DNA from: a virus | IMG/VR virus record: IMGVR_UViG_3300047548_001372 | Location: 21,329-85,328 of that record | DNA length: 64,000 nt | Direction: 5' to 3' (one strand) | Part shown: piece after piece, positions 1 to 62,829 of the stretch | Layout: each line of letters begins with the position of its first letter | How positions within the stretch are numbered: the stretch's first letter is position 1 | The notes under the pieces: generated by a model | Databases searched by the model: none | Told to the model about the DNA's origin: nothing | What the model saw: the letters and a program-made list of their open reading frames with translations, nothing else | Program-made: the position numbers and the translations under genes

Positions 1-1065
1 TTTTGGATTAACTGCATCAAGAATACCATGGATAAACGTACTAAGCAAGATGCGTGCGCCCTTCAAAAACCCTAATGCACGCAAATACTTATTCTCAATA
101 CCAGGATACCCATCAATAGCAGAAGCAATCTCTTCATCATCAACAAAATCACTGTAGTTAAAGTCAAACTTTGTATTCTTCTTTTTCTTTTTACGCTGCT
201 CTAATTCCCATCGTTGAACGTCCTTCACATTCAATGACGGAACATCTACACCAACTTTTAGTAGCATAGCCTTGAGCTGATCATTACTACTTGTGTTTAC
301 ACAACTATAACCATCTTTGGTAAAGACAATAGTGTCTGCTGCTCCTTGACTGATAAAGAGATCTTGTAAAACTTTATCAGCCACGCGCACATATTCACTG
401 AATGGGCCAATCATCGCAGAGAGCATTTCAGTATTTACATACACACCAGTATATTCCATCATTGCGGTAGGAGCAATGATAGCCATCTCTAAGTGATAGA
501 CACGAGTAAGTCCCTTCTCCTTAATTTCTTTCATCTGTTGATCATAGATTGGTAGAAGATAGGTTGTATCATCTGCTGCATATTGTAGTTCTTCATTACT
601 GAAGAATGATTCTGTGCGATTGATAAAACCCTCGCGCACACTCTTATCTCTAGTAATATTGAGACGACGCTTGCTTACATCAGCAAGACTAAAACCAACC
701 TTATATCCTACTGCCCAGATAAGACGATCTGCAATCATGGTATCGTGCATTGATACCATAGCAATACCATGGTGATAGAAGATCTTATAATCATACGTAA
801 GGTTATGACCAATCTTAAGAATATGTGGATTTTCCAATACTTCCTTAAAAATACTCATCGGTAGTTTTGTCATATCAAAGACAAAGCTATCATCACCATC
901 AATTGGTGCGCGGGTACTTAAAGACACCAACAACGGTCTAGCCTGATACGGATCAAGAGATGTCGTTTCAGTATCCACCCCAAGAATAGTATCATCCATC
1001 CAAGAGAGATCCTGTATTGCTGATAGGATAATAGCTGCTTGTGATTTGTTTGTAATATACTTCAT
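1..1065 (-). CDS. polA: Family A DNA polymerase, N-terminal 3'-5' exonuclease part (runs off the window edge; missing from the ORF track)
   Basis: Manual translation from ATG at 1065: MKYITNKSQAAIILSAIQDLSWMDDTILGVDTETTSLDPY (ExoI DxE), KIGHNLTYD (ExoII), HDTMIA, YAADDT (ExoIII). The start overlaps the upstream stop (ATGA). Confidence 0.9.
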   Translation of the reverse strand, partial: MKYITNKSQAAIILSAIQDLSWMDDTILGVDTETTSLDPYQARPLLVSLSTRAPIDGDDSFVFDMTKLPMSIFKEVLENPHILKIGHNLTYDYKIFYHHGIAMVSMHDTMIADRLIWAVGYKVGFSLADVSKRRLNITRDKSVREGFINRTESFFSNEELQYAADDTTYLLPIYDQQMKEIKEKGLTRVYHLEMAIIAPTAMMEYTGVYVNTEMLSAMIGPFSEYVRVADKVLQDLFISQGAADTIVFTKDGYSCVNTSSNDQLKAMLLKVGVDVPSLNVKDVQRWELEQRKKKKKNTKFDFNYSDFVDDEEIASAIDGYPGIENKYLRALGFLKGARILLSTFIHGILDAVNPK

Positions 1066-1463
1066 ACGCGCACAAAACTTTCTTTATCAACGCTAGTTAC
1101 AGCTGATCCAGCAATCTTCACGACAAACGACCCAGTAGCCGACCCAGTCTCCGACCCAGTTACATTTGGTCTAATAGTAACACATGCGACGCCAATTGTC
1201 CAATCAACATCTTCATCTACAAAAACCAACTCATTCTGATTATCAAAGACTAGTTTGATAAGTGTGGGTGAATAGGCTTTACCATCTTCACCCACACGCT
1301 TCTCTGGAGCTAGTTTAAAACCTGTTGTTTTCTGTATGGCAATGTCAGTAAGTATACCACAAAACTCATGTGTGTCAAATGTGATTATACACGCATGACC
1401 TAACAGTGTATAAAATAAACTACGAATAGCTTCAACTCTCTGCTGCTGTCCTTTTGTTGCCAT
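1062..1463 (-). CDS. Hypothetical protein
   Basis: 133-aa ORF with AGGAG RBS, coupled to the polymerase gene; contains a 12-bp-period repeat (CGACCCAGT at 1128, 1140, 1152). Confidence 0.7.
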   Translation of the reverse strand: MATKGQQQRVEAIRSLFYTLLGHACIITFDTHEFCGILTDIAIQKTTGFKLAPEKRVGEDGKAYSPTLIKLVFDNQNELVFVDEDVDWTIGVACVTIRPNVTGSETGSATGSFVVKIAGSAVTSVDKESFVRV

Positions 1464-1505
1464 ACATACTCCTAACTGATTATACTAACTGTTTATACTA
1501 GCTGT

Positions 1506-2606
1506 TTATACTTCTACTGCTGATAGTACTTTATACATAAGATCTCGTAGGAAGTATAAAGGCATAAAGTATATCGTCTTTTCAGCCTTATTGATATAGA
1601 GTGAGATCTTTGCAAATCGTACGCTTATACTTTCCCCCGCACTATCTTGAATAAACTGAACTTTCATAGCGTTCTCAATTGCATCGAGAAACATCATGAT
1701 ATTTGGTGAATACTTTACTGAATTATCTTTTCTCATACTAGGATTACCACGATGCGTAGAGATGTATGACCAATTCTCTGTAGTAGGTGATGAAAGCATA
1801 TACTCTAGTATAGCACGATCACAGTCATATGTCAAGAGCTTTCGTACAGCCTCTTCTGTCAGCAATGCACAGTAAAATGGTGTGTCATGAAAATGCAATA
1901 CAATAGTACCTAGCTTTGCGCGGGTAACGTATACCTCATTCTCTAACTGATCAAACCATTCATCACCTTTAAAAATAATAGCAGGACGATTGTAACGTAG
2001 CTTTGCGGTCATCTTACATTCAACAATCATCATCCCATCTTCATACCGCTTATCATCTACCTGAACGTATAAAGGAACCATAACATCACCCTTCCAACTT
2101 CTTCCTGCTCCTGATAACGGTACCCTTTTCCCTTTCAGGTATTTTGCTACATAGTTTTCCATTCTCCGCGCACGATCTTTATTTAATCTATTTGTTTTTG
2201 CACGATCTTCCATAATTTCCTTTCTTCCAGCATTGCCTGATTTTGTCAGCTGCTTGGACGGCTTTCCTCGTACAAGCACCCTTGCTACAGACTGCTGGAA
2301 TATGTATTCATGAATATTATCCTTTCCCACTAATCTATATCGCTCATCAACAAAGCCTGGCTTTGTTACTGGAATATCCTTTGTTCTTGCATTAAACGCC
2401 TTAGACACCCCAGGATCAATGTCCTGGAGTGTCTTTGGAAAGCGTAGTGTAGTATCTGCTGGTTTAGGTGCTCTGCTGTGCATTGAACGCTGTAGAGTGT
2501 ATTTCCTTGAGCGCACAATACCCAACCTCTTTTCCAGTTTTTCTACTCCTAATAACCTTCCTTTAAATCTACGTTTTACTTTTGTATGTACCTTTGTGCG
2601 CGGCAT
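1506..2606 (-). CDS. PD-(D/E)xK nuclease, Holliday junction resolvase-like (Hjc type), with a long basic N-terminal extension
   Basis: RARRMENYVAKYL..RVPLSGAG..KGDV...IVECK matches the Hjc-like E...PxSG...D...ExK pattern; lies between helicase and polymerase. Confidence 0.65.
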   Translation of the reverse strand: MPRTKVHTKVKRRFKGRLLGVEKLEKRLGIVRSRKYTLQRSMHSRAPKPADTTLRFPKTLQDIDPGVSKAFNARTKDIPVTKPGFVDERYRLVGKDNIHEYIFQQSVARVLVRGKPSKQLTKSGNAGRKEIMEDRAKTNRLNKDRARRMENYVAKYLKGKRVPLSGAGRSWKGDVMVPLYVQVDDKRYEDGMMIVECKMTAKLRYNRPAIIFKGDEWFDQLENEVYVTRAKLGTIVLHFHDTPFYCALLTEEAVRKLLTYDCDRAILEYMLSSPTTENWSYISTHRGNPSMRKDNSVKYSPNIMMFLDAIENAMKVQFIQDSAGESISVRFAKISLYINKAEKTIYFMPLYFLRDLMYKVLSAVEV

Positions 2607-2608
2607 GC

Positions 2609-3856
2609 CTATACATCCATTCCCTTAAACCGCTGATATGGCCCACAGAAAAGGATAGACGTTGTACCAATAGGCCCAAAGCGATTCTTTAAGAAGTTCA
2701 CTTCTACATTACGAACTTCTGTGTTGGTATCATCAGGATTAAGCAGAAACACCACATCTGCTACCTGTGCAATCTCACCACTATCACGAATACCATCAAG
2801 CCCCTGACCATTGCGATTAAGTTGCGAGAGTGCTACAATGGTGATGTTTAATTCCTTGGCAAGAGCTTTTAGCGTTTCTGCTACTTCGCCAAGATCACTA
2901 TTGGTATTTCCTGTTGGATTATGATTTACGATCTGAATATAGTCAAGGAATACTACACGTACACCATTCTGGATGACATGCTCCCTAATTTCCTTTACCA
3001 TCTTATAGAGCGTAATCTTTCCATTATCAATAACATACATTGGTAACTTTTGCAGTGTGGTAACAACACGCTCAATATCCTGTGTCTGCTCTGGTGTCAA
3101 CCTACCACTTGCAATGTATCGGCTATCGATACTGAGTGTATCAGCAATCCATTTGACAAAGAGATCTTCTTTTGACATCTCAAGACTAAAGAATAGGCTT
3201 GGTGTAGGATCGTGATCACCATTGGTGTTAACCTGCCTTGCCATCTCTAGCATACTGTTCGCTACCAGTGTTGTCTTACCACCACCTGGCCCTGCTGCAA
3301 GTACAATAAAAGCCTTTGGCTTCCACTCACCACCCATTCGGATGTCCAACCAAGGCATACCAGTAGAAGCAAAACGATACTTCTTACCTAGCTTTGCGTG
3401 AAGATTACCAAGAAACTCTACAGCACCACCAGTAGTTGAACTATCTTCACCAGCACCTACTGCATGGAAGGATAGTGATCGCATAATATCACCATCGCTA
3501 GGACTAAACTGGCTTGCAATAAACTCAAACTCTTCTGCTTTCTGCCGTGCAACACGCTTCGTAGCTAGACGCACACAGTCATCAAATACCGCTGCAATAG
3601 ATGTTGTGTGAGATGCAAGAAGCTCTCCTGGAACTTCACCCTTGAGATGCAGTGATAGACCTCTAAGATCAAGAGAGCCATACTGAGTAAAAGTATCACG
3701 TAGTGCGCGAAAGACAATAACACGCTCTTCAGTAAACATCACCTCATTAATACGATGAAGATAGACAGCGTTCTTTGGATCAAGAAGAGCTGCAAGTAGC
3801 TTCCACTCACTTACCTCATCAACGAACACATTGCTGAAAGAAATACTTTTTGTCAT
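2609..3856 (-). CDS. dnaB: DnaB-like replicative helicase
   Basis: Walker A AAGPGGGKTT, FFSLEM, VFLDYIQ, ALSQLNR, RDSGEIAQVAD, KNRFGP; start placed at MTKSISF. Confidence 0.95.
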   Translation of the reverse strand: MTKSISFSNVFVDEVSEWKLLAALLDPKNAVYLHRINEVMFTEERVIVFRALRDTFTQYGSLDLRGLSLHLKGEVPGELLASHTTSIAAVFDDCVRLATKRVARQKAEEFEFIASQFSPSDGDIMRSLSFHAVGAGEDSSTTGGAVEFLGNLHAKLGKKYRFASTGMPWLDIRMGGEWKPKAFIVLAAGPGGGKTTLVANSMLEMARQVNTNGDHDPTPSLFFSLEMSKEDLFVKWIADTLSIDSRYIASGRLTPEQTQDIERVVTTLQKLPMYVIDNGKITLYKMVKEIREHVIQNGVRVVFLDYIQIVNHNPTGNTNSDLGEVAETLKALAKELNITIVALSQLNRNGQGLDGIRDSGEIAQVADVVFLLNPDDTNTEVRNVEVNFLKNRFGPIGTTSILFCGPYQRFKGMDV

Positions 3857-3891
3857 AAAGAACCTTTCTAATAGAGATACTGGTAGAGAGA

Positions 3892-4764
3892 TTAATAGCG
3901 AAATTGTAGCCACGTTTCATAAGGAAGCGCAGCTTGAAGAATACAGGGGAATAAGTCTGGTGCTTCTAGTAGGAATGAATCAATATCCATCTTCTCTTTA
4001 CCTAATGACGGTAGTGTTGCTACTCGGCAGGTGTCGAAGTTGGATGCAATGTTTATCACTGCCCGCGCAATAGTATACCGCTGCTCTGGTTGTGTGTCAA
4101 ATAGAATAATCACATCTTGACCATACTGCTGTCGAAAGCCTTTCCTCCATGTATTCATACCTGGAAGTGCTATAGTAGGATATCCATGTTGAAATGCAAT
4201 AGCGGCTTTAATTTCACCCTCTGTAAGAATGAGTGTTTTATTTTTTGATAGAAAGTAATTGTATGGATAATCTGCTCCTCTGAAGTATGTACTATGTCGT
4301 GGTGATTTGTATTTTTGTTCAGCTGTTTTTTCTAGTGTGCGCGCACGAATATCAGAAACCACACCATCAAAACCTATATAAGGAAACGTAACACGATTAG
4401 CAAAAAATGCTTTTCCCTGAACTGCTAATCCAGCATGCCGTGCTACATCCGTACGATACCAGATAGCAGAATCATCTGGACAATATCCAATACGTAGTTG
4501 AACAATTGTAGTATCTGTAAAGCCTCGTTGATATAACCATGCAGTAACTTCTGGTGTTAAGCAACTATGATAGTAGTTACTCATACGATCATAGTAATCA
4601 CGAATATGATCAAGTAATGGGCTTCTAGTAAGTGTGGTTGTTTTTTCTACACCATCAATATAGGCTTTATAACTACAACTAAAACAATACCCAAGATTAT
4701 TATGACTAGTAATGTAAAAATTACTTTTACCACAATGTGGGCATTCCTCTTTTTTTCCAGACAT
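3892..4764 (-). CDS. DNA primase (Zn finger + TOPRIM)
   Basis: CPHC...CFSC zinc ribbon, RVTFP, KYKSP, LTEGEIKA, ALPG, DIDSF; adjacent to DnaB; start placed at MSGKKEE. Confidence 0.9.
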   Translation of the reverse strand: MSGKKEECPHCGKSNFYITSHNNLGYCFSCSYKAYIDGVEKTTTLTRSPLLDHIRDYYDRMSNYYHSCLTPEVTAWLYQRGFTDTTIVQLRIGYCPDDSAIWYRTDVARHAGLAVQGKAFFANRVTFPYIGFDGVVSDIRARTLEKTAEQKYKSPRHSTYFRGADYPYNYFLSKNKTLILTEGEIKAAIAFQHGYPTIALPGMNTWRKGFRQQYGQDVIILFDTQPEQRYTIARAVINIASNFDTCRVATLPSLGKEKMDIDSFLLEAPDLFPCILQAALPYETWLQFRY

Positions 4765-4776
4765 AATATATACCTT

Positions 4777-4826
4777 TATAACAAAGAGTATAACAAAAAG
4801 TATAACAGAAAGATATAACAAAAAAG
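4777..4826. repeat. Four short direct repeats (TATAACA core, 12-13-bp period)
   Basis: TATAACA at 4777, 4789, 4801 and 4814, just upstream of the primase gene. Confidence 0.8.
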
Positions 4827-4856
4827 ATAGGGCATAGCCGAAACTATGCCCTATTT
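4821..4856 (-). terminator. Intrinsic terminator after SSB
   Basis: Minus strand ATAGGGCATAG-TTTCGG-CTATGCCCTAT followed by CTTTTTT. Confidence 0.85.
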
Positions 4857-4871
4857 TCTATCTACCCTTAA

Positions 4872-5738
4872 CTACTCGCCGTCTTCTTCAGTTGCCCCTT
4901 CTAGTTGCGGGAAGAGTACAATACCAGAGTCCTTCATCACCTCATCAAAATCTTCACCGTCAAGCAGTGCGTTGATCACGCTATGTGGCCAAGGCTTCAC
5001 CCAACTCTTCAGATCGTAGCGAGGAAGATTGACGTGCTCCTCTGCAAGAGGACGAAAATCACCAGCCACCTGAAACGCACGACGAGTATCAGTACCATCA
5101 CCAGTTACACGCAGTGCAATATCAAACTCATACAACTGAAGCACACGATCCTCGTTATCTGGTGCGGTAACACTACCTACAAGATCATTGAGTCCTTGCA
5201 GCATATGCTTACCACCAGGCTTACCATTACTGCCCTCTAGGATGCGCACCTGAAGCAATGGTGAAGGAGTACCGTCTAGCTTTGTCGTAGTACCGTTGAC
5301 TTCGACATAGTACTGATTATTCTCTGAAGGATAGGCAACCTTATTGTTTGGTAGCTTAATCACCTTCGTCTTATCCAACACATTGATCGCAAAACGCTGC
5401 TTTGCCAGTACACGATCACGGTTAGGCTTACCATTTACCTCACGAGGAAGATCGTGGTACAGACGCTCCCAGATAGGATTACTGAACGGCTTGTACGGAT
5501 CAACCATCACGCGCTGCTGCCGCTGCTGTCCCTGCTTCATCACTGGGATCCAGTACTCTGCAAATGGTACTTCATCCTGCATCGCCATACCAGCTGACGT
5601 AACGTGCGGGAGAATACGAAACACACGACGCCCAGTACGATAAATACCACGCAGAGGATCAATCCATGGATTAACAAAATCTTCCGTAGAACCAGTACTA
5701 GCACCACGAGTGTTCTTCATGCTGTCACCAAATGCCAT
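4872..5738 (-). CDS. Single-stranded DNA-binding protein (T4 gp32-like)
   Basis: FRILP, RFAINVLD, DIALRVTGDGTDTR motifs; acidic C-terminus (EGATEEDGE); strong RBS, own promoter and terminator; replication-module context. Confidence 0.75.
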   Translation of the reverse strand: MAFGDSMKNTRGASTGSTEDFVNPWIDPLRGIYRTGRRVFRILPHVTSAGMAMQDEVPFAEYWIPVMKQGQQRQQRVMVDPYKPFSNPIWERLYHDLPREVNGKPNRDRVLAKQRFAINVLDKTKVIKLPNNKVAYPSENNQYYVEVNGTTTKLDGTPSPLLQVRILEGSNGKPGGKHMLQGLNDLVGSVTAPDNEDRVLQLYEFDIALRVTGDGTDTRRAFQVAGDFRPLAEEHVNLPRYDLKSWVKPWPHSVINALLDGEDFDEVMKDSGIVLFPQLEGATEEDGE

Positions 5739-5796
5739 AGTAGACCTCCATTCAGTATTGTCTAGCTGCTGTACATCAGCTGCTCTTCATATTGTC

Positions 5797-5825
5797 AGTA
5801 TATCACGAGTAATGCTTGTTGTCAA
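5797..5825 (-). promoter_or_regulatory. Sigma70/SigA promoter for SSB and replication genes
   Basis: TTGACA-17 nt-TATACT with extended -10 TG. Confidence 0.85.
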
Positions 5826-5846
5826 GTGGTTTATGTTAGCGTTGTG

Positions 5847-6161
5847 TTAGCGAATTAGTTTTGTTGTTGTTGTTGTGTGTGGATTGTAATCTTCTGCCTG
5901 CATAACCCTCTGTATAAACTGCTCAAACTCTTTAGGATCAACACGGTTAATGGTAAGATCCACAGAGTCCCATGGCATCTGTAGAAGAATTGGCCCATTT
6001 GTTGCTACAATCCCTGTAAGAATCTCTTGCACTTCAGGATTCCAAATAATGATAGACTGCATATTAGAATCGATAGCGATGTATACCTTTGCCTCTTCTC
6101 TAAATGATACCCTCTGCGTTTCTTGCTCTTGTACTGGTTCTTGTGTCATGTCTTGTGTCAT
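5847..6161 (-). CDS. Hypothetical protein
   Basis: 104-aa ORF with AAGGAG RBS. Confidence 0.7.
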   Translation of the reverse strand: MTQDMTQEPVQEQETQRVSFREEAKVYIAIDSNMQSIIIWNPEVQEILTGIVATNGPILLQMPWDSVDLTINRVDPKEFEQFIQRVMQAEDYNPHTTTTTKLIR

Positions 6162-6191
6162 GTGTTACTCCTTTTTATTCTTGCCCGCGCA

Positions 6192-6410
6192 TTACGCACA
6201 CCATCGTTCAAAGCTCATTGCATCAACCTTCATGATCTCTTGAGCCATCTCAATAAGATCTACCCGATCACAGTCCATGTGGTTTGCTACATAGTTTACA
6301 AACAGTTTAAGTAATTCATCTTCTACAATATGCGCCATTTCATGATCTCCGATTGATGCGTAAGTTGAGATCTCTTCGATACGTTCGCGCACATGCTCAA
6401 TGGTTAGCAT
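6192..6410 (-). CDS. Small conserved-type phage hypothetical protein
   Basis: 72 aa, AAGGAG RBS, GDHEMAHIVEDEL...RWCA. Confidence 0.75.
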   Translation of the reverse strand: MLTIEHVRERIEEISTYASIGDHEMAHIVEDELLKLFVNYVANHMDCDRVDLIEMAQEIMKVDAMSFERWCA

Positions 6411-6422
6411 AAGTATGCTCCT

Positions 6423-6797
6423 TTACACTACATATCTAGAATCGTAACGATCTCCGATAGTTGTATCAGTAGCGATCTGTTTTGCATTGATAACTTCAAT
6501 GTCTAGTATAGCAGATTCCCACATAGCGTAATAATGATCAAGTAAAACTACTTCTCGTAAACTTTGCTCTTCTCTTACATAGAAGATAAAGCTCTCTTGA
6601 ATAAGATCCATGACTAATTCACGTGCGTGATGTACTGCTAAGCCTAGATGATGTAGTGCAAGTAGGTAACTATGGTAGTTATTTTGATTACAGTTTTGAA
6701 ATGTATTCAACTTATTTTTTAACAGTTGATACTGAATATACATTTTTCTAATAACTTCTATTGCTTGATCTTCGCTTGCTGTTCGTTCGTTACTCAT
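6423..6797 (-). CDS. Hypothetical protein
   Basis: 124 aa, AAAGGA RBS, in tight operon. Confidence 0.7.
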   Translation of the reverse strand: MSNERTASEDQAIEVIRKMYIQYQLLKNKLNTFQNCNQNNYHSYLLALHHLGLAVHHARELVMDLIQESFIFYVREEQSLREVVLLDHYYAMWESAILDIEVINAKQIATDTTIGDRYDSRYVV

Positions 6798-6808
6798 AGC
6801 GATCCTTT

Positions 6809-7180
6809 CTATTCTGTGCGCGCACAGTATACACTACTATACCACAACTCATAAATAATATGCAAAGATGAAAGGGGTGAGTAGGATACATTATTCCTTT
6901 CCAGACTAGCAAGAAGTAGATCACGAACAAACTCTTGTGACATAATCTTACCTGCGTTTATCGCAGAGATGCTATCGGATACGCGACGTGGTAGGCTGTA
7001 TGGTGTGTAGATAAGTGCAGAATCAAACGCATCGATAGTTCGCTCTAATGCTACGTAGCAATGATAGATGTCCATAATCTCATTTGGATCTGCGTTATGG
7101 ATAATCGATTCCTCAGGCTCATTCCGAAAAGCCTTTCGTTGATTATAAGCAATAGGTGTTGAAAGATCTTTGTTATTCAT
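6809..7180 (-). CDS. Hypothetical protein
   Basis: 123 aa, TAATG coupling with the upstream gene. Confidence 0.7.
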   Translation of the reverse strand: MNNKDLSTPIAYNQRKAFRNEPEESIIHNADPNEIMDIYHCYVALERTIDAFDSALIYTPYSLPRRVSDSISAINAGKIMSQEFVRDLLLASLERNNVSYSPLSSLHIIYELWYSSVYCARTE

Positions 7181-7575
7181 TAAAATGCCTCAAAGCTATC
7201 AGAAGTATCACTAGGCGTGTCGAAGAACGCTGCCGAGTTGGTAAGCATAGCCAAATCAAGCGCAGCAAGTACGTGATCGCCATCCTCGTCACGATCTACA
7301 CCATGAAGTTTCCAAAAAAGTGACGTAAACTCAGCCTCCATATACCCAATAACATATTGGTATCCAATATGTTCCCAAGGTTGAAGATTGTGCGTGTTAT
7401 TTTTTGCATTTGTAATAAACTTCTGCACAAAATCTAGAGCCTCCTCTAAAGCCTCATGGGACGATGCGTTATGAACTGCTGCTGTTGCACCAATAAAACC
7501 TGAAAGAAGCAGTGTGCGTACATTCGCAATAAACGCATCCTTACGATCCTCAAGCATCTTAATATGATCTTCCAT
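7180..7575 (-). CDS. Hypothetical protein
   Basis: 131 aa, first gene after the 7654 promoter, AAAGGA RBS. Confidence 0.75.
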   Translation of the reverse strand: MEDHIKMLEDRKDAFIANVRTLLLSGFIGATAAVHNASSHEALEEALDFVQKFITNAKNNTHNLQPWEHIGYQYVIGYMEAEFTSLFWKLHGVDRDEDGDHVLAALDLAMLTNSAAFFDTPSDTSDSFEAF

Positions 7576-7625
7576 AATGCTTCCTTTCTTGCTTTTCTTT
7601 ATGCTTGCTTTTTCTTACCACGAAC

Positions 7626-7654
7626 ATCATAGCACAAGTCAAGCATCCTGTCAA
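7626..7654 (-). promoter_or_regulatory. Sigma70/SigA promoter
   Basis: TTGACA-17 nt-TATGAT with extended TG; palindrome ATAGGTAA-NN-TTACCTAT (7654-7671) abuts the -35. Confidence 0.85.
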
Positions 7655-7684
7655 TAGGTAATTTTACCTATGTGTGCGCGAGTA

Positions 7685-7870
7685 CTAATACCCTAATTCC
7701 TTTTCCACATCACGAGTAAAATCATTCATCCCATCAAGAATAATCTTACGTAGTGTTGGTGTAACTAGATTTTGTTTTTCTAATTCTAAGAGCATACGCT
7801 TAATATACTTCCCGCGCAAATGTAGTAAAACCCTCTGAGTAATAGTTTTCTGTCGTAATTCTGTAAGCAT
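7685..7870 (-). CDS. Hypothetical protein
   Basis: 61 aa, directly follows the GT4 gene. Confidence 0.65.
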   Translation of the reverse strand: MLTELRQKTITQRVLLHLRGKYIKRMLLELEKQNLVTPTLRKIILDGMNDFTRDVEKELGY

Positions 7871-7875
7871 TCCCT

Positions 7876-9060
7876 TTATTCCTTAATAAGATTGTTAAAC
7901 ACTGCTTCAAATTGTGCGGCTACGGTATCCCAAAGGTACTCCCTTTGCGTAACCAACGCATATCCAGATTCAGCAATATACTCACGATACAATGAATCAG
8001 TATACATTTTTTCTAAACCATCAATATAACTTTGCATACTTGCCTGTGCGTGAATAGTATTTAGTCCATTGGTAGTAACGTATGGAATATCTGAAGGTTC
8101 GATATAATGTACTCCCCCGCGAGCCCATTCAGATAGTGCAGCAGTATTGACTACCATATTAGCAGTTCGTGTAGCCATACTTTCCATCGTACATAAGCCC
8201 CATCCCTCACCACCACTGGTTGATACTCGTACATCAGCAGCATTGTAGACTGCATTTAGCACACTTGTACTAACTCCATGTGCAGGATCAAGGTTCTTTA
8301 CCGTATAGATCATACGATCGGTAATACCAAAAAACTCTGCAAGCTGGGCAATATCATATCCTACATCAAGCAAAGCACCATGATACCAGAGCTTTACATT
8401 TTTTGGTTTATTGTTTGACCAAAGAGCAAACCCATACATTGCAAGATCAATTCGTTTACGTTGTGAATTACGATCTACTACTTGTACAATGAAATCTTCT
8501 GGATCTACATTATCTGTTAATGATTTGTTTTTAATCTCAGCCCGCACAGCTTTTTTATCCATTGGAAAAAACTCCTGCAAATCAATTCCATGGGGAATAA
8601 CTGCAAGATTTTTGCTATATCCAGATTGCTGAAGTACTGATCCACCAAAATAGGTGTAAACTACTCCTTGAGTAAAGGTATGGAGTGGTTCAACAAATAC
8701 TGATTTTACATTTACTGCATCAACTGGAGTATAGAACACATGTGCTGTTGGATAGGCTTTTGGTATCTCTTTTGCATACTCTGATAAAATCCAAGGATCG
8801 TTAAGATAAAAAACCACATCAGGTTTAATTTTTGTAGTAAGTTCTACAATACGTGTTAATCCATATACATCATTAAAATCACGTAACCTGGGATTAAATA
8901 GTTTTGCTACTTGAGAAATTGGATGATAATCTCCATCGTAGTTTACTCCAAGAATATATAAATCCCAGTTATTAGCCCAACGGTATGCAAGACTGTGGAG
9001 TACTTTTGCAAAGCCTGTATCAGCTGCTGCATCACCAACAAGAAGTAGTTTCTTTTTCAT
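7876..9060 (-). CDS. Glycosyltransferase family 4 (GT-B fold)
   Basis: TGFAKV, VIPHGID, RNSQRKRID, EGWGLCTME (E-x7-E motif). Confidence 0.9.
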   Translation of the reverse strand: MKKKLLLVGDAAADTGFAKVLHSLAYRWANNWDLYILGVNYDGDYHPISQVAKLFNPRLRDFNDVYGLTRIVELTTKIKPDVVFYLNDPWILSEYAKEIPKAYPTAHVFYTPVDAVNVKSVFVEPLHTFTQGVVYTYFGGSVLQQSGYSKNLAVIPHGIDLQEFFPMDKKAVRAEIKNKSLTDNVDPEDFIVQVVDRNSQRKRIDLAMYGFALWSNNKPKNVKLWYHGALLDVGYDIAQLAEFFGITDRMIYTVKNLDPAHGVSTSVLNAVYNAADVRVSTSGGEGWGLCTMESMATRTANMVVNTAALSEWARGGVHYIEPSDIPYVTTNGLNTIHAQASMQSYIDGLEKMYTDSLYREYIAESGYALVTQREYLWDTVAAQFEAVFNNLIKE

Positions 9061-9078
9061 AAAATATCCTTGTATAGA

Positions 9079-9112
9079 GTGGTATTATATGTGCGCGCAC
9101 ATATAATACCAC
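9079..9112. repeat. Perfect 34-bp palindrome centred on GTGCGCGCAC
   Basis: GTGGTATTATATGTGCG|CGCACATATAATACCAC, intergenic. Confidence 0.9.
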
Positions 9113-9125
9113 ACATCCATCCTAA

Positions 9126-9767
9126 TTACAACTCACGAGAAACCAACACTGTATCAGTAATCTCTGAAAGATAAATATCATGCAAGCCTGGAATATATCC
9201 AATAGGATACTCCAGACGAACAGGAGATGCTAGTTTCTTTCGGAAATAATCATCAAGAGCTTTAATATCAGCATCTAGCAAGCGCTGAAGTGATCGCTCT
9301 TTACTAAGATTGGTAAAACGAATATCTTCAGTTGACCACGATACTAATTCCTCTGATGAACTAGAAACCCTCGCTTTACGCAGCAGGTAGGTTGCAGCAA
9401 GAACGATTGGTGTTTCATCATCAGACAGTAATACTGGTTGTGGTACTGAAAAATCAAGATAGGGATTACGAAACACATCACCAGATGTTAAACCTGAAGG
9501 AATGTAGGCTTGACCATCAACGGTGTTTGCTAACACATATCCAGCAGGTACATTTGGTGGTTGTGGTGAAACAACAATTGCAGATTCAAACACTTGATAT
9601 TTTGATGACCACTTCTTCTGAAGATAGCGGATAGCATTAACTAATGCTGTGCGCACTGTGGTATCGGTGAAGATTGATCCATCAAGATCACCAAAGTTTA
9701 AACGAATCTGCGATAGTAAGTACTCAATGTTAATTGGAGTACTGTAATACGTAACAGAAGTTGGCAT
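9126..9767 (-). CDS. Probable head-tail adaptor/connector-like virion protein
   Basis: N-terminal QIRLNFGDLD..FTD pattern typical of adaptor proteins; downstream SWSTEDIRF strand. Confidence 0.5.
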   Translation of the reverse strand: MPTSVTYYSTPINIEYLLSQIRLNFGDLDGSIFTDTTVRTALVNAIRYLQKKWSSKYQVFESAIVVSPQPPNVPAGYVLANTVDGQAYIPSGLTSGDVFRNPYLDFSVPQPVLLSDDETPIVLAATYLLRKARVSSSSEELVSWSTEDIRFTNLSKERSLQRLLDADIKALDDYFRKKLASPVRLEYPIGYIPGLHDIYLSEITDTVLVSREL

Positions 9768-9931
9768 TATGCCTCCTCTGACTGTTTTGTAAGTTTTTCT
9801 GTAAGTTTTTCTAACTCATTTGCAGCAGTAAGTAATGCAGTAATTTGTGTTTCTGCTTGTCGTTTTACTTCTTCTGCTTGTTGTTTTAATTCTTGCACGC
9901 GCTTTAAAATAGTTCCCTGTGGTACGTTCAT
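9767..9931 (-). CDS. Small coiled-coil protein (54 aa, below the ORF-track cutoff)
   Basis: Manual translation MNVPQGTILKRVQELKQQAEEVKRQAETQITALLTAANELEKLTEKLTKQSEEA*; GGAG RBS; TAATG coupling to the next gene. Confidence 0.75.
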   Translation of the reverse strand: MNVPQGTILKRVQELKQQAEEVKRQAETQITALLTAANELEKLTEKLTKQSEEA

Positions 9932-9985
9932 TTATTATACTCCATGAGCTGACAGCATAATTTAACTACTCGTTACATGACACAG

Positions 9986-10246
9986 CTACACACCACTCCC
10001 CCCTCCTGCGGCACTCATCTGCGCTTGGTAATCTGCAATTACCTCCGGTGTGTGGATAACATTACACACAGCCCTTACTTTTTCTGCCTCTTTGCTATAA
10101 TCTTGGCCTGGAGCAATGGTGTGGCGGTGATAGAATCTGCTTAGCTCTTTACCATCTTCGACGATTTTGGTGGCTGTCCTGACCTGTACAATACCGCTTT
10201 CCACAACTTCAATCTGATCAACCATCGTTAGTTTTTCTAGTGGCAT
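9986..10246 (-). CDS. Small tail-fibre-associated protein
   Basis: DQIEV...VQVR...EDGKELSR.YHRH type protein, which commonly follows DYEEGTW tail-fibre genes. Confidence 0.7.
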   Translation of the reverse strand: MPLEKLTMVDQIEVVESGIVQVRTATKIVEDGKELSRFYHRHTIAPGQDYSKEAEKVRAVCNVIHTPEVIADYQAQMSAAGGGSGV

Positions 10247-10266
10247 GTTTAACTCCCTGTGATGTA

Positions 10267-11007
10267 TTAAACAAAGTAAGACATTGAAAACATAATAGCA
10301 GAGTTGTTAGCAAAATCTGCATTTGTCAACGCTGTAAGTGCTCCAGCGTTAGTTGTTTCACCTAAAGCAATATTTGTACTGTTAATAACAGCGTATGCCT
10401 GCGGAAAGTCCGCAAATGTGATGTTTTGAAACAATCCTATTGATGCTGAAGGATATGCTGAAGCTAAGTTTAGCACTGCAAATGGCAGTCCTGTTATTGT
10501 AGCAGATCCAGTAGAAGTTCCTTTGTTTGAAAGAATTACATAACCAGAAACCGTGACTTGTCTGCCAATTTTTGTATATGTTCCTGCATTGATCGTGTAA
10601 GTCACACCAACACTCGCCCCACCAAACGCAATACCAATCGTCCAGGTACCCTCCTCATAATCATTAAGTATTTCTGATGTCATCCCGGTCGCTTCTGACG
10701 TAGCAGCAAAGCTGAGACCAATACCGCTTGGAAAAACAATATTTTGATTGAATGTATTTATACCAGTAAATGTCTGATTTGCGTTCAGCCTAGCTGCTGT
10801 TCCTGTACCATCAACAGTTAGTGTATAGTTTCCTGTTGCGGGGGAAGTGGTAATTTTTATACCTCCGCCCCCGCCTTTTACTGTCGCAATATCTCCATTT
10901 GTATCTGCATAGAGATTGATAAAGTTAGTTGCTACACCCGTGGGTGGGGTAACTTGATCTGCAAGTCGAATACTCGTAATATTCGCTGCATTAATATTTA
11001 CTGTCAT
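10267..11007 (-). CDS. Tail fibre / receptor-binding protein
   Basis: ANQTFTGINTF shaft motif and C-terminal DYEEGTW...YTKIGRQVT head domain; start placed at MTVNINAA (AGGAG RBS). Confidence 0.8.
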   Translation of the reverse strand: MTVNINAANITSIRLADQVTPPTGVATNFINLYADTNGDIATVKGGGGGIKITTSPATGNYTLTVDGTGTAARLNANQTFTGINTFNQNIVFPSGIGLSFAATSEATGMTSEILNDYEEGTWTIGIAFGGASVGVTYTINAGTYTKIGRQVTVSGYVILSNKGTSTGSATITGLPFAVLNLASAYPSASIGLFQNITFADFPQAYAVINSTNIALGETTNAGALTALTNADFANNSAIMFSMSYFV

Positions 11008-11018
11008 GTAATTTTCTC

Positions 11019-14855: not shown

Positions 14856-14880
14856 TGATTTTTACCTTTGTGCGCGAATG

Positions 14881-17975: not shown

Positions 17976-17996
17976 GATGTTTCCTTGTTCTACATA

Positions 17997-18053
17997 ACGC
18001 GCACATTATTCTACTTTTTAACAAGCTCTTTTCTAACAAAATAATGTGCGCGT
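17997..18053. repeat. 14-bp inverted repeat containing the CGCGCA motif
   Basis: ACGCGCACATTATT (17997-18010) and AATAATGTGCGCGT (18040-18053). Confidence 0.85.
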
Positions 18054-18057
18054 CATA

Positions 18058-18408
18058 TTATACTTGCTCTAACCTCAACGTAACATCATAATAGAAAAAC
18101 CCATCTCTACGCATCTTATCAGCAGCTAATGTTACTTCAAAGCCACCAGGAGGAACAAGGACAGTATAATTGGTACTGTTTTCATCAGTAAATGTAAAAC
18201 TACTCGTAAGCTCTGCAATTGTTCTAATTCCTGATAAATCAGTCTCTGGTAAACTTGTCCACACAAGCTCCCAGTTACGTTTATTTGCGCGGTGATAGTA
18301 GTATAGTGTACCATTCGCCGCACGCTTGAGATCACCAATTTTATCCAATGAAGACGTAATAGCAGTTGGATAAAAATTAGTACTGTTTAATACAATATAA
18401 TTATTCAT
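18058..18408 (-). CDS. Distal tail (Dit-like) protein
   Basis: 116 aa right after the tape measure; RAANGTL...KRNWELVW...YDVTLRLEQV. Confidence 0.7.
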   Translation of the reverse strand: MNNYIVLNSTNFYPTAITSSLDKIGDLKRAANGTLYYYHRANKRNWELVWTSLPETDLSGIRTIAELTSSFTFTDENSTNYTVLVPPGGFEVTLAADKMRRDGFFYYDVTLRLEQV

Positions 18409-18415
18409 AATTTAT

Positions 18416-32183: not shown

Positions 32184-32267
32184 AGAGAAACTCCTTTACA
32201 TGTATATAAGTAATAGTTTTTTCACACTTTTGTAGATACTTTTGCGCGCAAAAAGTATTACCCAGAT

Positions 32268-41779: not shown

Positions 41780-44359
41780 ATGCCTATACGAAAAAAATTA
41801 GATGAAAAGGATTTAGATCTTTTAGAAGTACTAGAAGATGAAGTTTGGCTAACTGAGTTTTTACGCAATACATCAGACGGTGAACATAACCGTGCACTTT
41901 GGCCAGCACAACCATGGAAGTATCGAGACTATCAAAAACAACTACTTACTGATAAATCAAAATACATCTCACTTACTGGGGGACGTGCTATTGGTAAGTG
42001 TGAGCCTGGTGAAGCAAAGATCCTTACCGTAGGGCGTGGATATATGATGTTGAAAGATCTGGTGAAAGAAACATCATTTCCAGTGTATGCACTAGATCAA
42101 TACTCTAATCTTGTTCAGCGTAGAGCACGAGTTACACCAGATGACATGGCTCCAGTAAAAAAGATTTATACTCGTGCGGGGCATTTAATACACGTCACAG
42201 CAGAACATCCAATCCTTACACCAGATGGATGGGTAAAAGCAGAAAATATTGATGTAGGATCGTTGGTTGGTGTATTGACACAAATACCCAACGATATGAT
42301 CAGTCAAACATTTGCCTGGCATGAATTACGGTTTTTTGGATATATCTTACTAGATCCTCCATTGCGCGAAAGTACTGTTTTTGTACCAAAGTATAAAAAG
42401 ATTGGAGAAGAGTTTAAGTACATCTGTTCTCTTTTACCAGTAGATGTATTTCCTCGTGAGAATGGGTTTGGTGTGCGTAGGATTAAAGGTGGGTATTTTT
42501 CTACAATCCGCGCACTTTACAATGATGTAGGTTTTGATGATGACTACGTATTTTCCTTGCGTATGTCAAGTATGCCAGAGCTGCTACTGTTAGAATGTAA
42601 AGAAAATCTTAAAGTATTTCTTGAAGCGCTGTTTGCTCAATTTGCAGAAGTATCTGCGCGGGAGATTAGTATATTTACACGCTACGAATCACTCACTTTT
42701 GCACTACAAACAATGCTCTTGCGTTTTGGCATTGAATCACGTATTACTACAAAAGACGAACCAAATAGTTATACTCTGGAAATACTTGATTACGAGAACG
42801 TGTATGATTTCTGGAAAACATTCACATTACCTGGTGTATCTGTTGATCAGTTAGAAGAGCCTGTACGTAAAGCACGAGTAAATGCACATCTTCGGTATGA
42901 TGAGGTAGTGTATGTGGATATGCCAATATATCCAGTACAAACATACGCTGTCCATGTGCGCGAAGATAATAACTACATCTCCAGTAACATCTACGTACAC
43001 AACACCGTAGTACTTGAAGATAAAATTATTTATGAAGTAGTAAACTATGAGCGTGAGTTTCCTGTTACACCAGAGCAGGTACTTACCACAGCGAACCAGT
43101 CGCAGATGCAGCCATTGCTGTCAAAACTTATACAACGTTTTACTTCAAGTCCATTACTAAAACATTATTTACAAAACAATGTAAATAAACAAGATGGTAC
43201 GATGAGGTTTCCTGCACGAAGTAAACCATTTACGTTTTACTTTCGTATTGCAGGTAGTAAAGGCGAAAACAACGTTGTAGGACTTCACGTACCTAAAGTA
43301 AAGATTGATGAAGCACAACTGTACCCACCAAATGCGTACACACAACTGCTTCCGATTATTAACTACTGGGAACCTAAAACACAACTTCTTATTACTGGGG
43401 TGTCAAATGGTTTACGTAATTCAGTATTGTATTTAGTAGATCAGAAAGATCCGAAGTTTAAGAAATATCGTATTCCCTCGCACAATAACCCATTCTACTC
43501 ACGAGAACAAGATCTGCAAAACTTACGTGATTGGGGTGGTGAGAACGATGATCGCTATGTTCAGCTTGTGCTTGGTAGACATGGATCGGCTGCATTTCAA
43601 ATCCTTACCAGAGATGATTTTAAAGTAGAAAGTTTTCCATTTCATAACTATCGATACCAAAGTAATCAGAAGATGAAAGGTATCCACTATCATGAGGTAC
43701 TAGGTACACCTGCTATTCCAGAATCAATTCAGCTTGTAATGGCTATTGATACAGGATTTGTTGATCCTACCATTATTCAGCTTATTGGTATGGATAAGTA
43801 TCATATCTGGAGAACTTATTGTAGGTATCAACTTAATCGTATTGACTTTACTGAGCAGCGAAAGATTATTCACTGGTTAGCTACAGAATATAATGTACCG
43901 ACAATTGCCATGGATATTGGTGCAGGTGGTGGGGGCGCTGGTATTATGCACGCACTACTTCACGAGGATGAGTACAAAAACGATAATTACAGTCAGCGTA
44001 TTGTACCAGTTATTTTTAATGAAAAGATTGTTGTAGGATTACGTGAATCTGGTGAGGAAGTAGCAGATGATGCAAAATCACATGGTACAAAAGTGCTAGT
44101 GACTGAAGTTCAATCAAGCCGATTAGTATTTAGTGATGTAGATCATGAAGGGATTTCACAACTTGAAAGAATATCGAAACAGAAACTTAGCACTGGAAAA
44201 GATCGTTATTTTGTATTATCCGATCGTGGAAGTGGTGCAGATTCAAATGATCACATTTATGCCAGTTATATTTGTTTTGGTATTGCAATTGACCGTGGTT
44301 TAGTAAAGCCCGCGCAAGCACCACGTAAGTTAGCTTCTGTGTCTGGTGTGTATACGTAA
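41780..44359 (+). CDS. terL: Terminase large subunit (intein-containing)
   Basis: YQKQ, GGRAIGK[intein]T Walker A, KIDEAQ Walker B, nuclease AIDTG, SNDH. Confidence 0.9.
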   Translation: MPIRKKLDEKDLDLLEVLEDEVWLTEFLRNTSDGEHNRALWPAQPWKYRDYQKQLLTDKSKYISLTGGRAIGKCEPGEAKILTVGRGYMMLKDLVKETSFPVYALDQYSNLVQRRARVTPDDMAPVKKIYTRAGHLIHVTAEHPILTPDGWVKAENIDVGSLVGVLTQIPNDMISQTFAWHELRFFGYILLDPPLRESTVFVPKYKKIGEEFKYICSLLPVDVFPRENGFGVRRIKGGYFSTIRALYNDVGFDDDYVFSLRMSSMPELLLLECKENLKVFLEALFAQFAEVSAREISIFTRYESLTFALQTMLLRFGIESRITTKDEPNSYTLEILDYENVYDFWKTFTLPGVSVDQLEEPVRKARVNAHLRYDEVVYVDMPIYPVQTYAVHVREDNNYISSNIYVHNTVVLEDKIIYEVVNYEREFPVTPEQVLTTANQSQMQPLLSKLIQRFTSSPLLKHYLQNNVNKQDGTMRFPARSKPFTFYFRIAGSKGENNVVGLHVPKVKIDEAQLYPPNAYTQLLPIINYWEPKTQLLITGVSNGLRNSVLYLVDQKDPKFKKYRIPSHNNPFYSREQDLQNLRDWGGENDDRYVQLVLGRHGSAAFQILTRDDFKVESFPFHNYRYQSNQKMKGIHYHEVLGTPAIPESIQLVMAIDTGFVDPTIIQLIGMDKYHIWRTYCRYQLNRIDFTEQRKIIHWLATEYNVPTIAMDIGAGGGGAGIMHALLHEDEYKNDNYSQRIVPVIFNEKIVVGLRESGEEVADDAKSHGTKVLVTEVQSSRLVFSDVDHEGISQLERISKQKLSTGKDRYFVLSDRGSGADSNDHIYASYICFGIAIDRGLVKPAQAPRKLASVSGVYT
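41999..43003 (+). mobile_element. Intein (335 aa) in the TerL Walker A motif, with degenerate LAGLIDADG domain
   Basis: Starts CEPGEA after GK, block B VTAEHPIL, ends IYVHN before +1 Thr; LLRFGI endonuclease remnant. Confidence 0.92.
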
Positions 44360-55772: not shown

Positions 55773-56330
55773 ATGGGGTATGATCACTGGATGACGCCAC
55801 CGGATGAACTAGAGCTTGCTCGGAGTGTCATGGGTAGCATTACGTTAGATCCTGCAAGCAGCACGGTAGCACAGCAGTATGTACGAGCAGATCAATACGC
55901 TGTGCTGCCAGAAGACTATGATGGAAGTCCAGGGCAGGTTGTCGATGGGTTACAGATCGCTTGGTATGGTAATGTTTGGCTTAATCCTCCATACAGTAAA
56001 CCAGTAGCAGACTTTGCAAAGAAAGCAGCAAAGGAGCTACCAAACGTTACCAGTATGATGATCCTCGTTAATTCACAAACTGATGCAGCGTGGTATCATT
56101 TACTAATGGAGAAGATGGACTATCTATGCCTCTATCGAGGCAGGATTAAATTCTGGAAGGTATTTGATGGGGCTACACATCAGCGCTGGATTAGTACTAC
56201 TACCAGTAAAATGACAAACAGCCCTAGATATACCAATAGTGTATTCTTCCACAGCAAGGATGATGCAACACTGAAGAGATTTGCGCAGGTATATGCAAAG
56301 AAGGGTAAAGTCTTGATGCCTTTATATTAG
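55773..56330 (+). CDS. Phage Dam-like N6-adenine methyltransferase
   Basis: WMTP, LDPAS, DGL..W.GNVWLNPPYS, TDAAWYH, GRIKF. Confidence 0.88.
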   Translation: MGYDHWMTPPDELELARSVMGSITLDPASSTVAQQYVRADQYAVLPEDYDGSPGQVVDGLQIAWYGNVWLNPPYSKPVADFAKKAAKELPNVTSMMILVNSQTDAAWYHLLMEKMDYLCLYRGRIKFWKVFDGATHQRWISTTTSKMTNSPRYTNSVFFHSKDDATLKRFAQVYAKKGKVLMPLY

Positions 56331-61590: not shown

Positions 61591-62409
61591 CTTGGCAATA
61601 ATTTGGTTTTTTGCCTACCAATTTTTACCAAAAATCCACTTTTAGCACAGGCATGCTAATCTGTCTAGACTGTCTAGTTGTGCATAGTATCCAATAGGTT
61701 TTCCTCTTTTTATACCAGTAAAATACCTATAACACAGTAATCTATACCAGAGTATATTGTACCATAGCGTATGGAATATACCAGTAATCGATAATTCCAT
61801 ACGCTGTATCATTCTGGTATAGATATATGGTATGGTATGGTATTTTTTATATTGTGTTGTATGGTATTTTTTGGTATTTTTACCTTTAGCCGCGCATTGT
61901 ACACAATGCACAATTGTGCATAATTCTAGCTATTCCTGAAAAATACTATATACAATATCGATTCACCTATAGACAATTCATTATATCTCTCTATCTATCA
62001 TGTGTTATGGAATTAGAGAATTGTTGAATTGTTATACGTTAGCCGCGCAAAGTATGAATTGTCTATAATTCTCTGTCAAAAATATCAGAAAAGTATATAT
62101 CTTTCCTGAATAAAACATAGTTTTAAATTTATTCCCGAAATTTTGAAAATAGAACCAAATTGCTATTTTTGAGCTGCTAGGTTTTATCGTACCATACTAT
62201 GTGCTATAGTATACATGCGCGGTAAGGGTATATACCATACCCCCGCTACAATACCTCTATAACGCGCTATACGCCATCCTAACGCACGATAAATCTTTTC
62301 TGGTATGATACCATACCCGGCCTATTTTGAGCGCCTTAAAATACCTATTTTGAGCCTCTATGATATACAGTATGGAATAACGATTACTAGATAGAGTAGT
62401 AATTAGAAT

Positions 62410-62448
62410 AAAAAAAAAATACCAGTATGCACAGTGTGCATACTGGTA
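62410..62448 (-). terminator. Intrinsic terminator
   Basis: TACCAGTATGCAC/GTGCATACTGGTA stem followed by a 10-T run on the minus strand. Confidence 0.88.
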
Positions 62449-62470
62449 ACGAACTAGCTAGACTAGCTAA

Positions 62471-62725
62471 CTAGCTATAAATAGAATTAGATTTTGTTTT
62501 CTTATGCTTATGGTAAAATTCTAACACAGCAAGAGTCAATGGTGTGCGAATTGCACGCTTAGGATCTTCAGTATCCCAATTTGGCATAAACCAATCATGG
62601 CCATCCCAAACCATGATGTTAAAATCCTTATAATTAATATTTACATGGTATACCGTACCATACGGACTAGTTACCAGAAATTGTTTTTCTTTTTCTGGCA
62701 ATTGGATAACCGTATACTTTACCAC
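62471..62725 (-). CDS. Hypothetical protein
   Basis: 84 aa, AAGGAG RBS, upstream TGGTATAAT extended -10. Confidence 0.7.
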   Translation of the reverse strand: MVKYTVIQLPEKEKQFLVTSPYGTVYHVNINYKDFNIMVWDGHDWFMPNWDTEDPKRAIRTPLTLAVLEFYHKHKKTKSNSIYS

Positions 62726-62829
62726 TGCGTTGACTCCTTGCTACTAGTGATTACTCTGTCATTATACCATAGCCGCGCAATTCATAGTACTAGAAAAGCG
62801 TTAGAATTGCGCGGCTATTGAAAAACCTA

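Follow-up and report, generated by a model that had tools for sequence, protein, structure and literature searches.

TGCGCG, a densely iterated and strand-oriented genomic word of an uncultured phage

Why would a phage genome of some 40% GC carry the hexamer TGCGCG about once every 520 bp (both strands counted), within its genes as well as between them? The question is raised by IMG/VR virus record IMGVR_UViG_3300047548_001372, a linear record of 85,328 bp (CheckV completeness 63%; GC 39.8%), of which the stretch analyzed here, hereafter the window, comprises bases 21329-85328 (64,000 nucleotides; GC 40.3%, above the ~37% given in the original prediction that was made from the letters of this stretch). 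Near-identical DNA was seen in freshwater and other aquatic metagenome runs, none of the runs listed being of RNA, the window encodes a portal protein as part of a tailed-phage gene set, and the source is apparently an uncultured, lytic-looking freshwater phage. The original prediction had taken TGCGCG and its complement CGCGCA (hereafter the word) to be a dispersed, selected cis signal; none of the annotated features accounts for it. We find that the word is real, highly specific and under DNA-level selection in both orientations, with a one-sided conserved flank, and that it is an iterated genomic word of the class of Chi and the uptake signal sequences (USS), in a new variant carried by a lytic-looking phage.

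Excess and specificity of the word

The window contains 115 exact copies, 53 reading TGCGCG and 62 reading CGCGCA, where a zero-order model expects 12.6 (9.1-fold), and the whole record contains 164 copies at 156 loci. The strong enrichment announced in the original prediction is therefore upheld, although its expectation of about nine copies was too low; its counts by eye of about 50 copies in the first 32.5 kb and about 100 in the window compare with actual values of 55 and 115, and all 20 of the positions that it gave as examples hold a copy to within 1 base. TGCGCG/CGCGCA is the top-ranked hexamer of the window by zero-order and by maximal-order Markov scores alike. Among longer forms, GTGCGCG and CGCGCAC each occur 31 times, TGTGCGCG occurs 47 times against 0.8 expected (zero-order), TGCGCGG 57 times against 2.5 (zero-order) or 4.0 (order-2 Markov, z 26), and TGCGCGGG 20 times.

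Richer null models reduced this excess and did not abolish it. Markov models of orders 1, 2, 3 and 4 expect 14.8, 28.9, 44.5 and 59.8 copies, respectively. Shuffling synonymous codons within genes left 40.1 +/- 4.7 copies (300 shuffles, none above 53), and shuffling whole codons left 33.9 +/- 4.1; both of these nulls retain the 15 intergenic copies as well as codon frequencies that the word has already inflated (59 of the 199 CGC codons lie inside copies), and the gene model behind them and behind the copy classes is a crude longest-ORF (open reading frame) set. Resolved by class, the codon shuffle gave 12.3 +/- 3.0 sense copies against 60 observed and 13.0 +/- 3.2 antisense copies against 40 observed. 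Since the observed counts exceed the codon-shuffle nulls, the enrichment withstands control for both codon usage and amino acid sequence.

The excess is confined to a narrow neighborhood of sequences, with 15 of the 18 one-mismatch variants of TGCGCG standing at 0.2-1.8 times expectation. AGCGCG/CGCGCT, thought at first to be scarce, occurs 8+11 = 19 times, near expectation. The three raised variants are TGCGTG (2.9-fold), TGTGCG (4.8-fold; it overlaps TGTGCGCG) and TGCGGG (2.3-fold; similar flank), the last of these being the sister form whose abundance had been correctly noticed (TGCGGG/CCCGCA, 15+15 = 30 copies, about 2.3-2.4-fold over expectation).

Anatomy, selection and arrangement

Alignment of the 115 copies in a common orientation revealed an element of the form t-g-TGCGCG-g followed by an A/T-rich, C-poor block at +9 to +17, each functional unit spanning about -2 to +18 relative to the first base of the word. 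T is found at -2 in 65 copies, and G directly precedes the word (-1) in 62 and directly follows it (+6) in 57; C stands at +13 in only two copies, and A at each of +14 to +16 in 63-67. The A/T fraction at +13 to +17 is 0.80 compared to 0.60 for the genome, and the 3' flank is enriched in AAAGG, AGAAA, TAAAA and GAAAA. For copies on the minus strand, the A/T-rich flank accordingly lies at lower coordinates. The block is common to sense (60), antisense (40) and intergenic (15) copies and is therefore a feature of the DNA rather than an artefact of coding.

Independent evidence of selection came from L001, an IMG/VR contig with 92.7% identity to the window over 20,137 aligned bases. Of 38 cores, 32 were kept in L001, compared to 68% of random hexamers (P 0.02) and 60% of GC-rich control hexamers (P 0.001), and mismatches numbered 6 in 228 core bases (P 0.002) and 1 in 190 flank bases at +11 to +15 (P 1e-4). 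Copies nevertheless turn over between strains, eight being found in L001 only and six in the window only. Contigs of four metagenome runs compared with 20 kb of the window showed about 2,360 differences. Selection on the word also reaches into protein sequence: the plus-strand copy in the large terminase gene places an Arg where 17 of 17 aligned homologues have Tyr, and at the antisense copy in the same gene the homologues mostly have Thr or Asn, then Ser. Both copies bear out the proposal that the word forces Val-Arg and Arg-Ala pairs on the proteins. Together with the codon-shuffle nulls, the conservation in L001 and the flank shared by all copy classes, these replacements support the predicted dispersed cis signal, selected on both strands and within genes.

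Copies are spread evenly along the record, with Poisson-like overall spacing (coefficient of variation 0.93) and no global polarity over the 85 kb. As predicted, they occupy both strands and lie inside genes as well as between them: 100 of the 115 window copies (87%) are genic, 40 of these 100 being antisense. Orientation tends to alternate. Among the 148 non-palindromic copies of the record, neighbors closer than 300 bp share orientation in 13 cases and oppose each other in 40 (26.6 same expected, P 0.0002); for the window by itself, the corresponding figures for neighbors closer than 500 bp are 16 and 33 (24.5 same expected, P 0.01). Same-strand gaps shorter than 300 bp are fewer than expected (plus strand, 6 against 16.7; minus strand, 16 against 24.1), and mean same-strand spacing is about 1 kb (1,148 and 934 bp). 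This alternation, with the depletion of close same-strand neighbors, indicates that whatever reads the word uses each strand or direction separately.

Two special arrangements stand out. Eight of the 107 window loci are palindromic double copies, TGCGCGCA, six of which (all but those at 32243 and 54008) carry the 12-mer TGTGCGCGCACA. One of the six forms the center of a perfect palindrome between two co-directional genes, which as RNA would fold into a 15-bp stem (-21 kcal/mol, z -6.9 against 200 shuffles); when the five 12-mer loci other than 4338 were folded, a long extended stem was found only at this one, at 9092, and the other four gave z values of -1.85 to +0.9. A further intergenic inverted repeat, at 17992, has diverging copies as its outer ends and folds with -29.3 kcal/mol (z -7.0).

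The second arrangement lies outside the window, in the first 21.3 kb of the record. Of the 49 copies here, 12 are separated from a preceding TTGACA by exactly 3 bp and 13 are followed by TATAAT at +14; the 12 occupy the spacers of near-consensus sigma-70 promoters, 8 bp before TATAAT, and each is accompanied by an inverted second copy 45-46 bp upstream that bears its own A/T flank, the two copies being the outer ends of a 15-bp inverted repeat. At genome positions 1-15000 (locus L097) these cassettes form an array with the layout CGCGCA-N3-TGTTAAC..TTTCTAACA..TTGACA-N3-TGCGCG-N5-TGnTATAAT..GTAATC, in most members of which the three bases adjoining the word are complementary between the arms. 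Searching IMG/VR for the early-promoter pattern returned 15 contigs with a single match each, which looks like chance.

Candidate readers of the word

A directional signal read on a single strand fits best with the specificity of the word, its one-sided conserved flank and its use in each orientation without transcriptional polarity. The reading that we tentatively place first, as a possibility, is that the word acts in the manner of Chi on a nuclease that processes DNA ends, being specific to one strand and read in one direction. The signal would comprise 5'-(t)(g)TGCGCG(g)-3' and, some 7-11 nt beyond it on the 3' side, a stretch rich in A and poor in C; as to the identity of the reader and the consequence of reading, we infer that an enzyme travelling along the DNA from an end would read it as RecBCD or AddAB reads Chi. 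A helicase-nuclease, either that of the host or one working with the PD-(D/E)XK nuclease of the phage, would enter at any double-strand end, be it a genome terminus, a restriction cut or a broken fork; meeting the word on the 3'-ended strand would turn degradation off and allow recombinational repair to begin. As correctly oriented copies occur about once per kb whichever way the enzyme travels, the loss at any break might stay below ~1 kb. The fact that ~160 sites have been rewritten suggests a genome adapted to a reader that it cannot change, pointing to a host enzyme.

Comparison with the Chi words of E. coli (GCTGGTGG), L. lactis (GCGCGTG), B. subtilis (AGCGG) and S. aureus (GAAGCGG) brings out likenesses as well as differences. 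Like these, the phage word is short, asymmetric and G-rich, lies within genes, is seemingly needed in each orientation and displays the dependence on 3'-flank context that characterizes the class. Unlike them, it matches no known Chi, GTGCGCG being the lactococcal word written backwards and not its complement; and unlike Chi in E. coli it is about ten times denser, lacks genome polarity and belongs to a phage with a RecA-like gene of its own. According to one study, cutting by purified RecBCD is most efficient where A is present at nucleotides 4-7 on the 3' side of Chi (AAAA, AAGG, AAGGAG), and the E. coli enzyme slightly prefers T just 5' of Chi (PMC5041463), a context echoed by the A-rich 3' flank of the phage word and the T just 5' of it. 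There is also phage precedent for enrichment, in that some lambdoid phages strongly over-represent Chi; within that group, possession of a recombinase gene goes together with lack of Chi (PMC3784561). Chi words are known for only five species (PMC8022716).

Several observations weigh against the Chi-like reading. The phage encodes both a RecA-like protein and a PD-(D/E)XK nuclease, the word has no global polarity along the record, and its A-rich block lies farther away than in E. coli Chi. A density of one per 520 bp is, to our knowledge, higher than that of any known Chi. The fixed position of the word in 12 early promoter spacers, with an inverted partner 45-46 bp away, is left unexplained. 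Finally, none of 401 sampled Pseudomonadota genomes came near the word density of the phage, and none qualified as a host candidate; the best of them (3.4 Mb) has 57 copies of the 9-mer against 7 of the reversed control and 1,524 of the 7-mer against 495. The sample includes an unpublished genome, G386 (13+19 against 17+10), on which no claim rests.

The DNA uptake sequences of competent bacteria, the Pasteurellaceae USS (AAGTGCGGT) and the Neisseria DNA uptake sequence (DUS), are like the phage word in having about equal orientations, mostly genic copies, an AT-rich 3' flank and inverted pairs that form intergenic hairpins, and the letters GTGCG are shared with the USS core. Unlike USS and DUS, the phage word is denser and occurs in an apparently lytic phage, not in a competent bacterium, so that the likeness is one of architecture only.

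More doubtful than the Chi-like reading is that the copies are lagging-strand priming sites, at which the zinc ribbon of the phage's DnaG-type primase would start primers. With the complementary strand as template, such primers would have GCGCGG as their first bases, and the polymerase would take over within the A/T-rich block. The phage does encode its own DnaB helicase and a primase with a CxxC...CxxC zinc ribbon (CPHC...CFSC after Met20 in the translation), and the ~1 kb per-strand spacing, the depletion of close same-strand neighbors, the alternation of orientation and a conserved flank at +11 to +15, about the length of a DnaG primer, are all consistent with priming. Extended T7 primase sites, (G/T)(G/T)GTC plus flank, resemble the word in per-strand spacing of ~1 kb, in a one-sided flank and in the zinc-ribbon primase encoded alongside. 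The known DnaG and T7-type primases, however, read 3-5 nt, and a core of 7-9 nt would have no known precedent in priming across a genome; a reader encoded by the phage could probably evolve to use a shorter word rather than force changes on invariant residues, and why the word keeps a fixed position in the early promoters would again go unexplained. We regard as similarly doubtful that the word serves as a 'self' mark private to the phage, recognized on one strand by replication or recombination machinery of the phage (the zinc-ribbon primase, or the PD-(D/E)XK nuclease with a helicase) that would work on, or spare, phage but not host DNA.

Those early promoters would be accommodated by a duplex-binding phage protein recognizing the GC core and an A-tract one helical turn away, an explanation that we nonetheless consider rather unlikely, slightly more so than priming. 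Such a protein would shut off the early promoters, where it would cover spacer and -10, and elsewhere in the genome would serve as a mark or compact the DNA, in the manner of the stoperators of Cluster A mycobacteriophages. Bound at the 12 copies that follow TTGACA, or the 13 with TATAAT at +14, it would occlude the promoter; the inverted second copies with their own A/T flanks would suit it, and a core and an A/T block one turn apart are typical of bending proteins. It predicts neither the alternation of orientation nor the depletion of close same-strand neighbors. The stoperators bound by L5 gp71 are, like the word, asymmetric sites present in an early promoter and dispersed elsewhere, but they are intergenic and co-oriented with transcription, whereas the word is 87% intragenic with 40% of genic copies antisense, and has five to six times more copies; nor was any sign of a repressor or of lysogeny seen here. 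In Pfam and PHROGs scans of ~70 ORFs, many of them without a family and from a record 63% complete, no regulator, HU-like protein, sigma factor, T7-type or other RNA polymerase was recognized.

That the copies are single-strand nick sites of a T5-like phage nickase is improbable. One report gives the major nick consensus of T5 as 5'-R/GCGCRGG-3' and places the nicks of T5, tf and phiKMV-like phages on one strand only (PMC3517423). The GCGC(G)GG core of this consensus recurs in the phage word, as the counts of TGCGCGG and TGCGCGGG attest, but the base before GCGC is by definition T and not a purine, the copies occupy both strands (53 plus, 62 minus), and there are ~160 sites against five major nicks. 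Nicking the eight palindromic loci and the 12 early pairs of opposed copies would moreover break the duplex. Literature searches on the word or on T5 nicks, main texts considered, gave this paper as the one relevant source and turned up no report of the word in a phage.

More improbable still is a sequence akin to highly iterated palindrome 1 (HIP1), made and kept by a methyltransferase with a drive of the very-short-patch repair type. The window does contain four DNA methyltransferase genes, as the original prediction said, and some distant relatives of the phage over-represent the palindromic 8-mers TTGCGCAA, ATCGCGAT and TTGGCCAA. The word, though, is asymmetric, only 8 of 107 loci being palindromic; its one-sided flank is not expected of repair drive; all four methyltransferases match N6/N4 amino-methylase families or structures; and neither PF00145 (C5-methylase) nor PF03852 (Vsr) had a match in the 85-kb record, itself 63% complete.

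Least probable of all, even with the word standing between -35 and -10 in early promoters and the A/T block of dispersed copies lying at nearly the same distance, is that the dispersed copies are middle or late promoters for host RNA polymerase and a phage factor (for which the ORF scans yielded no sigma or T7-type polymerase family): 40 of 100 genic copies point against their gene, the sigma-70 layout of gene-co-oriented -35 and -10 elements 16-18 bp apart was found at the 12 early copies and at none of the 115 window copies, which have no -35 and no enrichment of the terminal -10 T (T at +18 in 20 of 115), the five best sigma-70-like promoters in window positions 1-20000 have no copy in their spacers, and the sense intergenic copies, at 22-32 nt before start codons and overlapping ribosome-binding sites, are too near to be promoters of those genes.

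Of the three mechanisms that the original prediction had offered (a site for a DNA-coating protein, a HIP1-like sequence, and a signal like Chi or the FtsK-orienting polar sequences, KOPS), none is established; the Chi/KOPS-like one fits best by its alternating orientation and A-rich 3' flank, albeit without the global polarity, a DNA-coating protein is possible, and the HIP1-like one is the least supported.

Lineage, neighboring genes and significance

A megablast search with 10 kb matched no cultured phage, and protein searches with the portal protein, PolA and the large terminase (TerL) recovered only relatives at 21-28% identity, with Bacillus, Clostridium and cyanobacteria as hosts; these are too distant for any host inference. 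TerL had no match in JGI metagenome contigs, and a single one, a contig of a metagenome-assembled genome at 31% identity, in the genome collection. More than 100 homologues of 33-58% identity, on metagenomic contigs of up to ~110 kb, mark out a large family of uncultured phages, of which the phage collection contains no cultured representative. Among 80 IMG/VR loci with related terminases (35-58% identity), only L001 has a word of comparable strength, the top words of most loci reaching z 5-8 against z 26 here (order-2 Markov); beyond L001, the word itself is slightly over-represented only in the two loci whose TerL is 58% identical (7 against 1.3 and 5 against 1.1 expected). The dense word is therefore a trait of this lineage.

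The idea that every relative has a dispersed word of its own was rejected, as the words of L047 and L075 are clustered intergenic hairpins and that of L023 has only 22 copies. The L023 word, TTGCCCGC followed by an AT-rich stretch, comes from a 106,876-bp sequence with direct terminal repeats (G001); its TGCCCGC occurs 22 times against once for the reversed control, 17 copies being on one strand regardless of gene direction and about half clustering at 87-97 kb. The ends of loci L047, L045 and L088 carry clusters of GGGGGTAGGGGG...CCCCCTACCCCC palindromes in intergenic DNA, which may correspond to the hairpins of the early cassettes, built with another GC clamp.

Besides DnaB and the primase, the window encodes PolA, a RecA-like protein, PD-(D/E)XK and resolvase-like nucleases and ThyX; no Rfam family matched at gathering score and no tRNA genes were found. 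Two of its segments vary between strains. A LAGLIDADG endonuclease ORF interrupts the ribonucleotide reductase gene, and contigs of runs X4 and X6 connect 36629 or 36639 straight to 37533, indicating that the insert is absent in some strains. A 3'-phosphoadenosine 5'-phosphosulfate (PAPS)-reductase-like gene at the head of a glycosyltransferase/aminotransferase operon is bypassed in contigs of the same runs, which connect 47348 straight to 48115, and is missing from L001. A GMP reductase-like gene, of auxiliary nucleotide metabolism, sits between a methylase gene and the terminase region; the Atlas search gave no host clue. GATC occurs 748 times against 463 expected (zero-order, both strands of the whole window; 1.6-fold), alongside a Dam-family methylase gene. 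Coordinates are collected in Table 1.

Table 1. Copies of the word and other features of the window (window coordinates)
Feature	Position	Strand	Remarks
TGCGCG (n=53; span 907..62813; exact match)	first bases 907, 1917, 2597, 3704, 4338, 6817, 7675, 9092, 13656, 14229, 14871, 17295, 18047, 18286, 19251, 22807, 25348, 27147, 28229, 32243, 33553, 33825, 34125, 34455, 35418, 36097, 37066, 37801, 38284, 38848, 39394, 40039, 41041, 42363, 42655, 42957, 48156, 49933, 51671, 52559, 53985, 54008, 54978, 56353, 56622, 57296, 57825, 58384, 59076, 59341, 60799, 62216, 62808	+	
CGCGCA (n=62; span 384..62779; exact match)	first bases 384, 633, 1067, 2167, 4064, 4340, 6186, 6386, 6819, 7813, 9094, 12890, 14020, 14695, 15102, 15707, 16184, 16675, 17998, 18528, 19365, 21343, 22144, 22391, 25233, 26037, 26196, 27608, 29427, 29509, 29635, 30327, 31817, 32245, 32488, 33452, 34127, 34326, 35420, 36037, 39441, 39627, 41761, 42509, 44311, 45291, 46905, 47005, 47562, 48548, 50696, 52561, 53428, 54010, 54180, 56372, 56946, 58907, 60109, 61891, 62044, 62774	-	the word on the minus strand
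Palindromic double copies, TGCGCGCA	4338..4345; others starting 6817, 9092, 32243, 34125, 35418, 52559, 54008		
Perfect intergenic palindrome	9078..9110		TGTGCGCGCACA at center; two back-to-back copies (9092 +, 9094 -)
Cassette-like intergenic inverted repeat	17992..18058		diverging copies 17998 (-) and 18047 (+), 49 bp apart
Copy in large terminase gene	42957..42962	+	reads Val-Arg-Glu (gTG CGC Gaa)
Antisense copy in terminase gene	42509..42514	-	reads Arg-Ala
Large terminase	41780-44359		859 amino acids, with intein (PF14890; some homologues also PF14528)
DnaG-type primase	3892..4764	-	Pfam DNAG_N and DUF3854; N-terminal zinc ribbon
Five sigma-70-like promoters	7654-7626, 5825-5797, 4100-4072, 1835-1807, 1378-1351	-	11/12 consensus positions; replication-gene block
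Intrinsic terminator	4854-4827		clean
Ribonucleotide reductase gene	35446-36663 / 37494-38432		interrupted
LAGLIDADG endonuclease ORF	36729-37433		
GMP reductase-like gene	39668-40606		IMPDH family, Atlas features
PAPS-reductase-like gene (PP-loop)	47373-48107		phrog_424 match
Dam-family methylase	55773-56330		

The density and specificity of the word, and the cost of an invariant residue, argue for a sequence-reading machine that acts on the whole phage chromosome. If this machine were Chi-like, the word would disclose what serves as Chi in a freshwater host not yet cultured, and would reveal a lytic phage that fills its genome with the signal as a defense against nucleases degrading DNA from its ends. 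Were the word used instead for priming or self-marking, it would represent a new means by which a virus steers the enzymes of its own replication, and in the self-marking case the phage would tell its own chromosome from that of its host by a word written into its genes, not by base modification. The word could be used in a binding or cleavage assay, as a marker of the lineage and possibly as a signal for host prediction.

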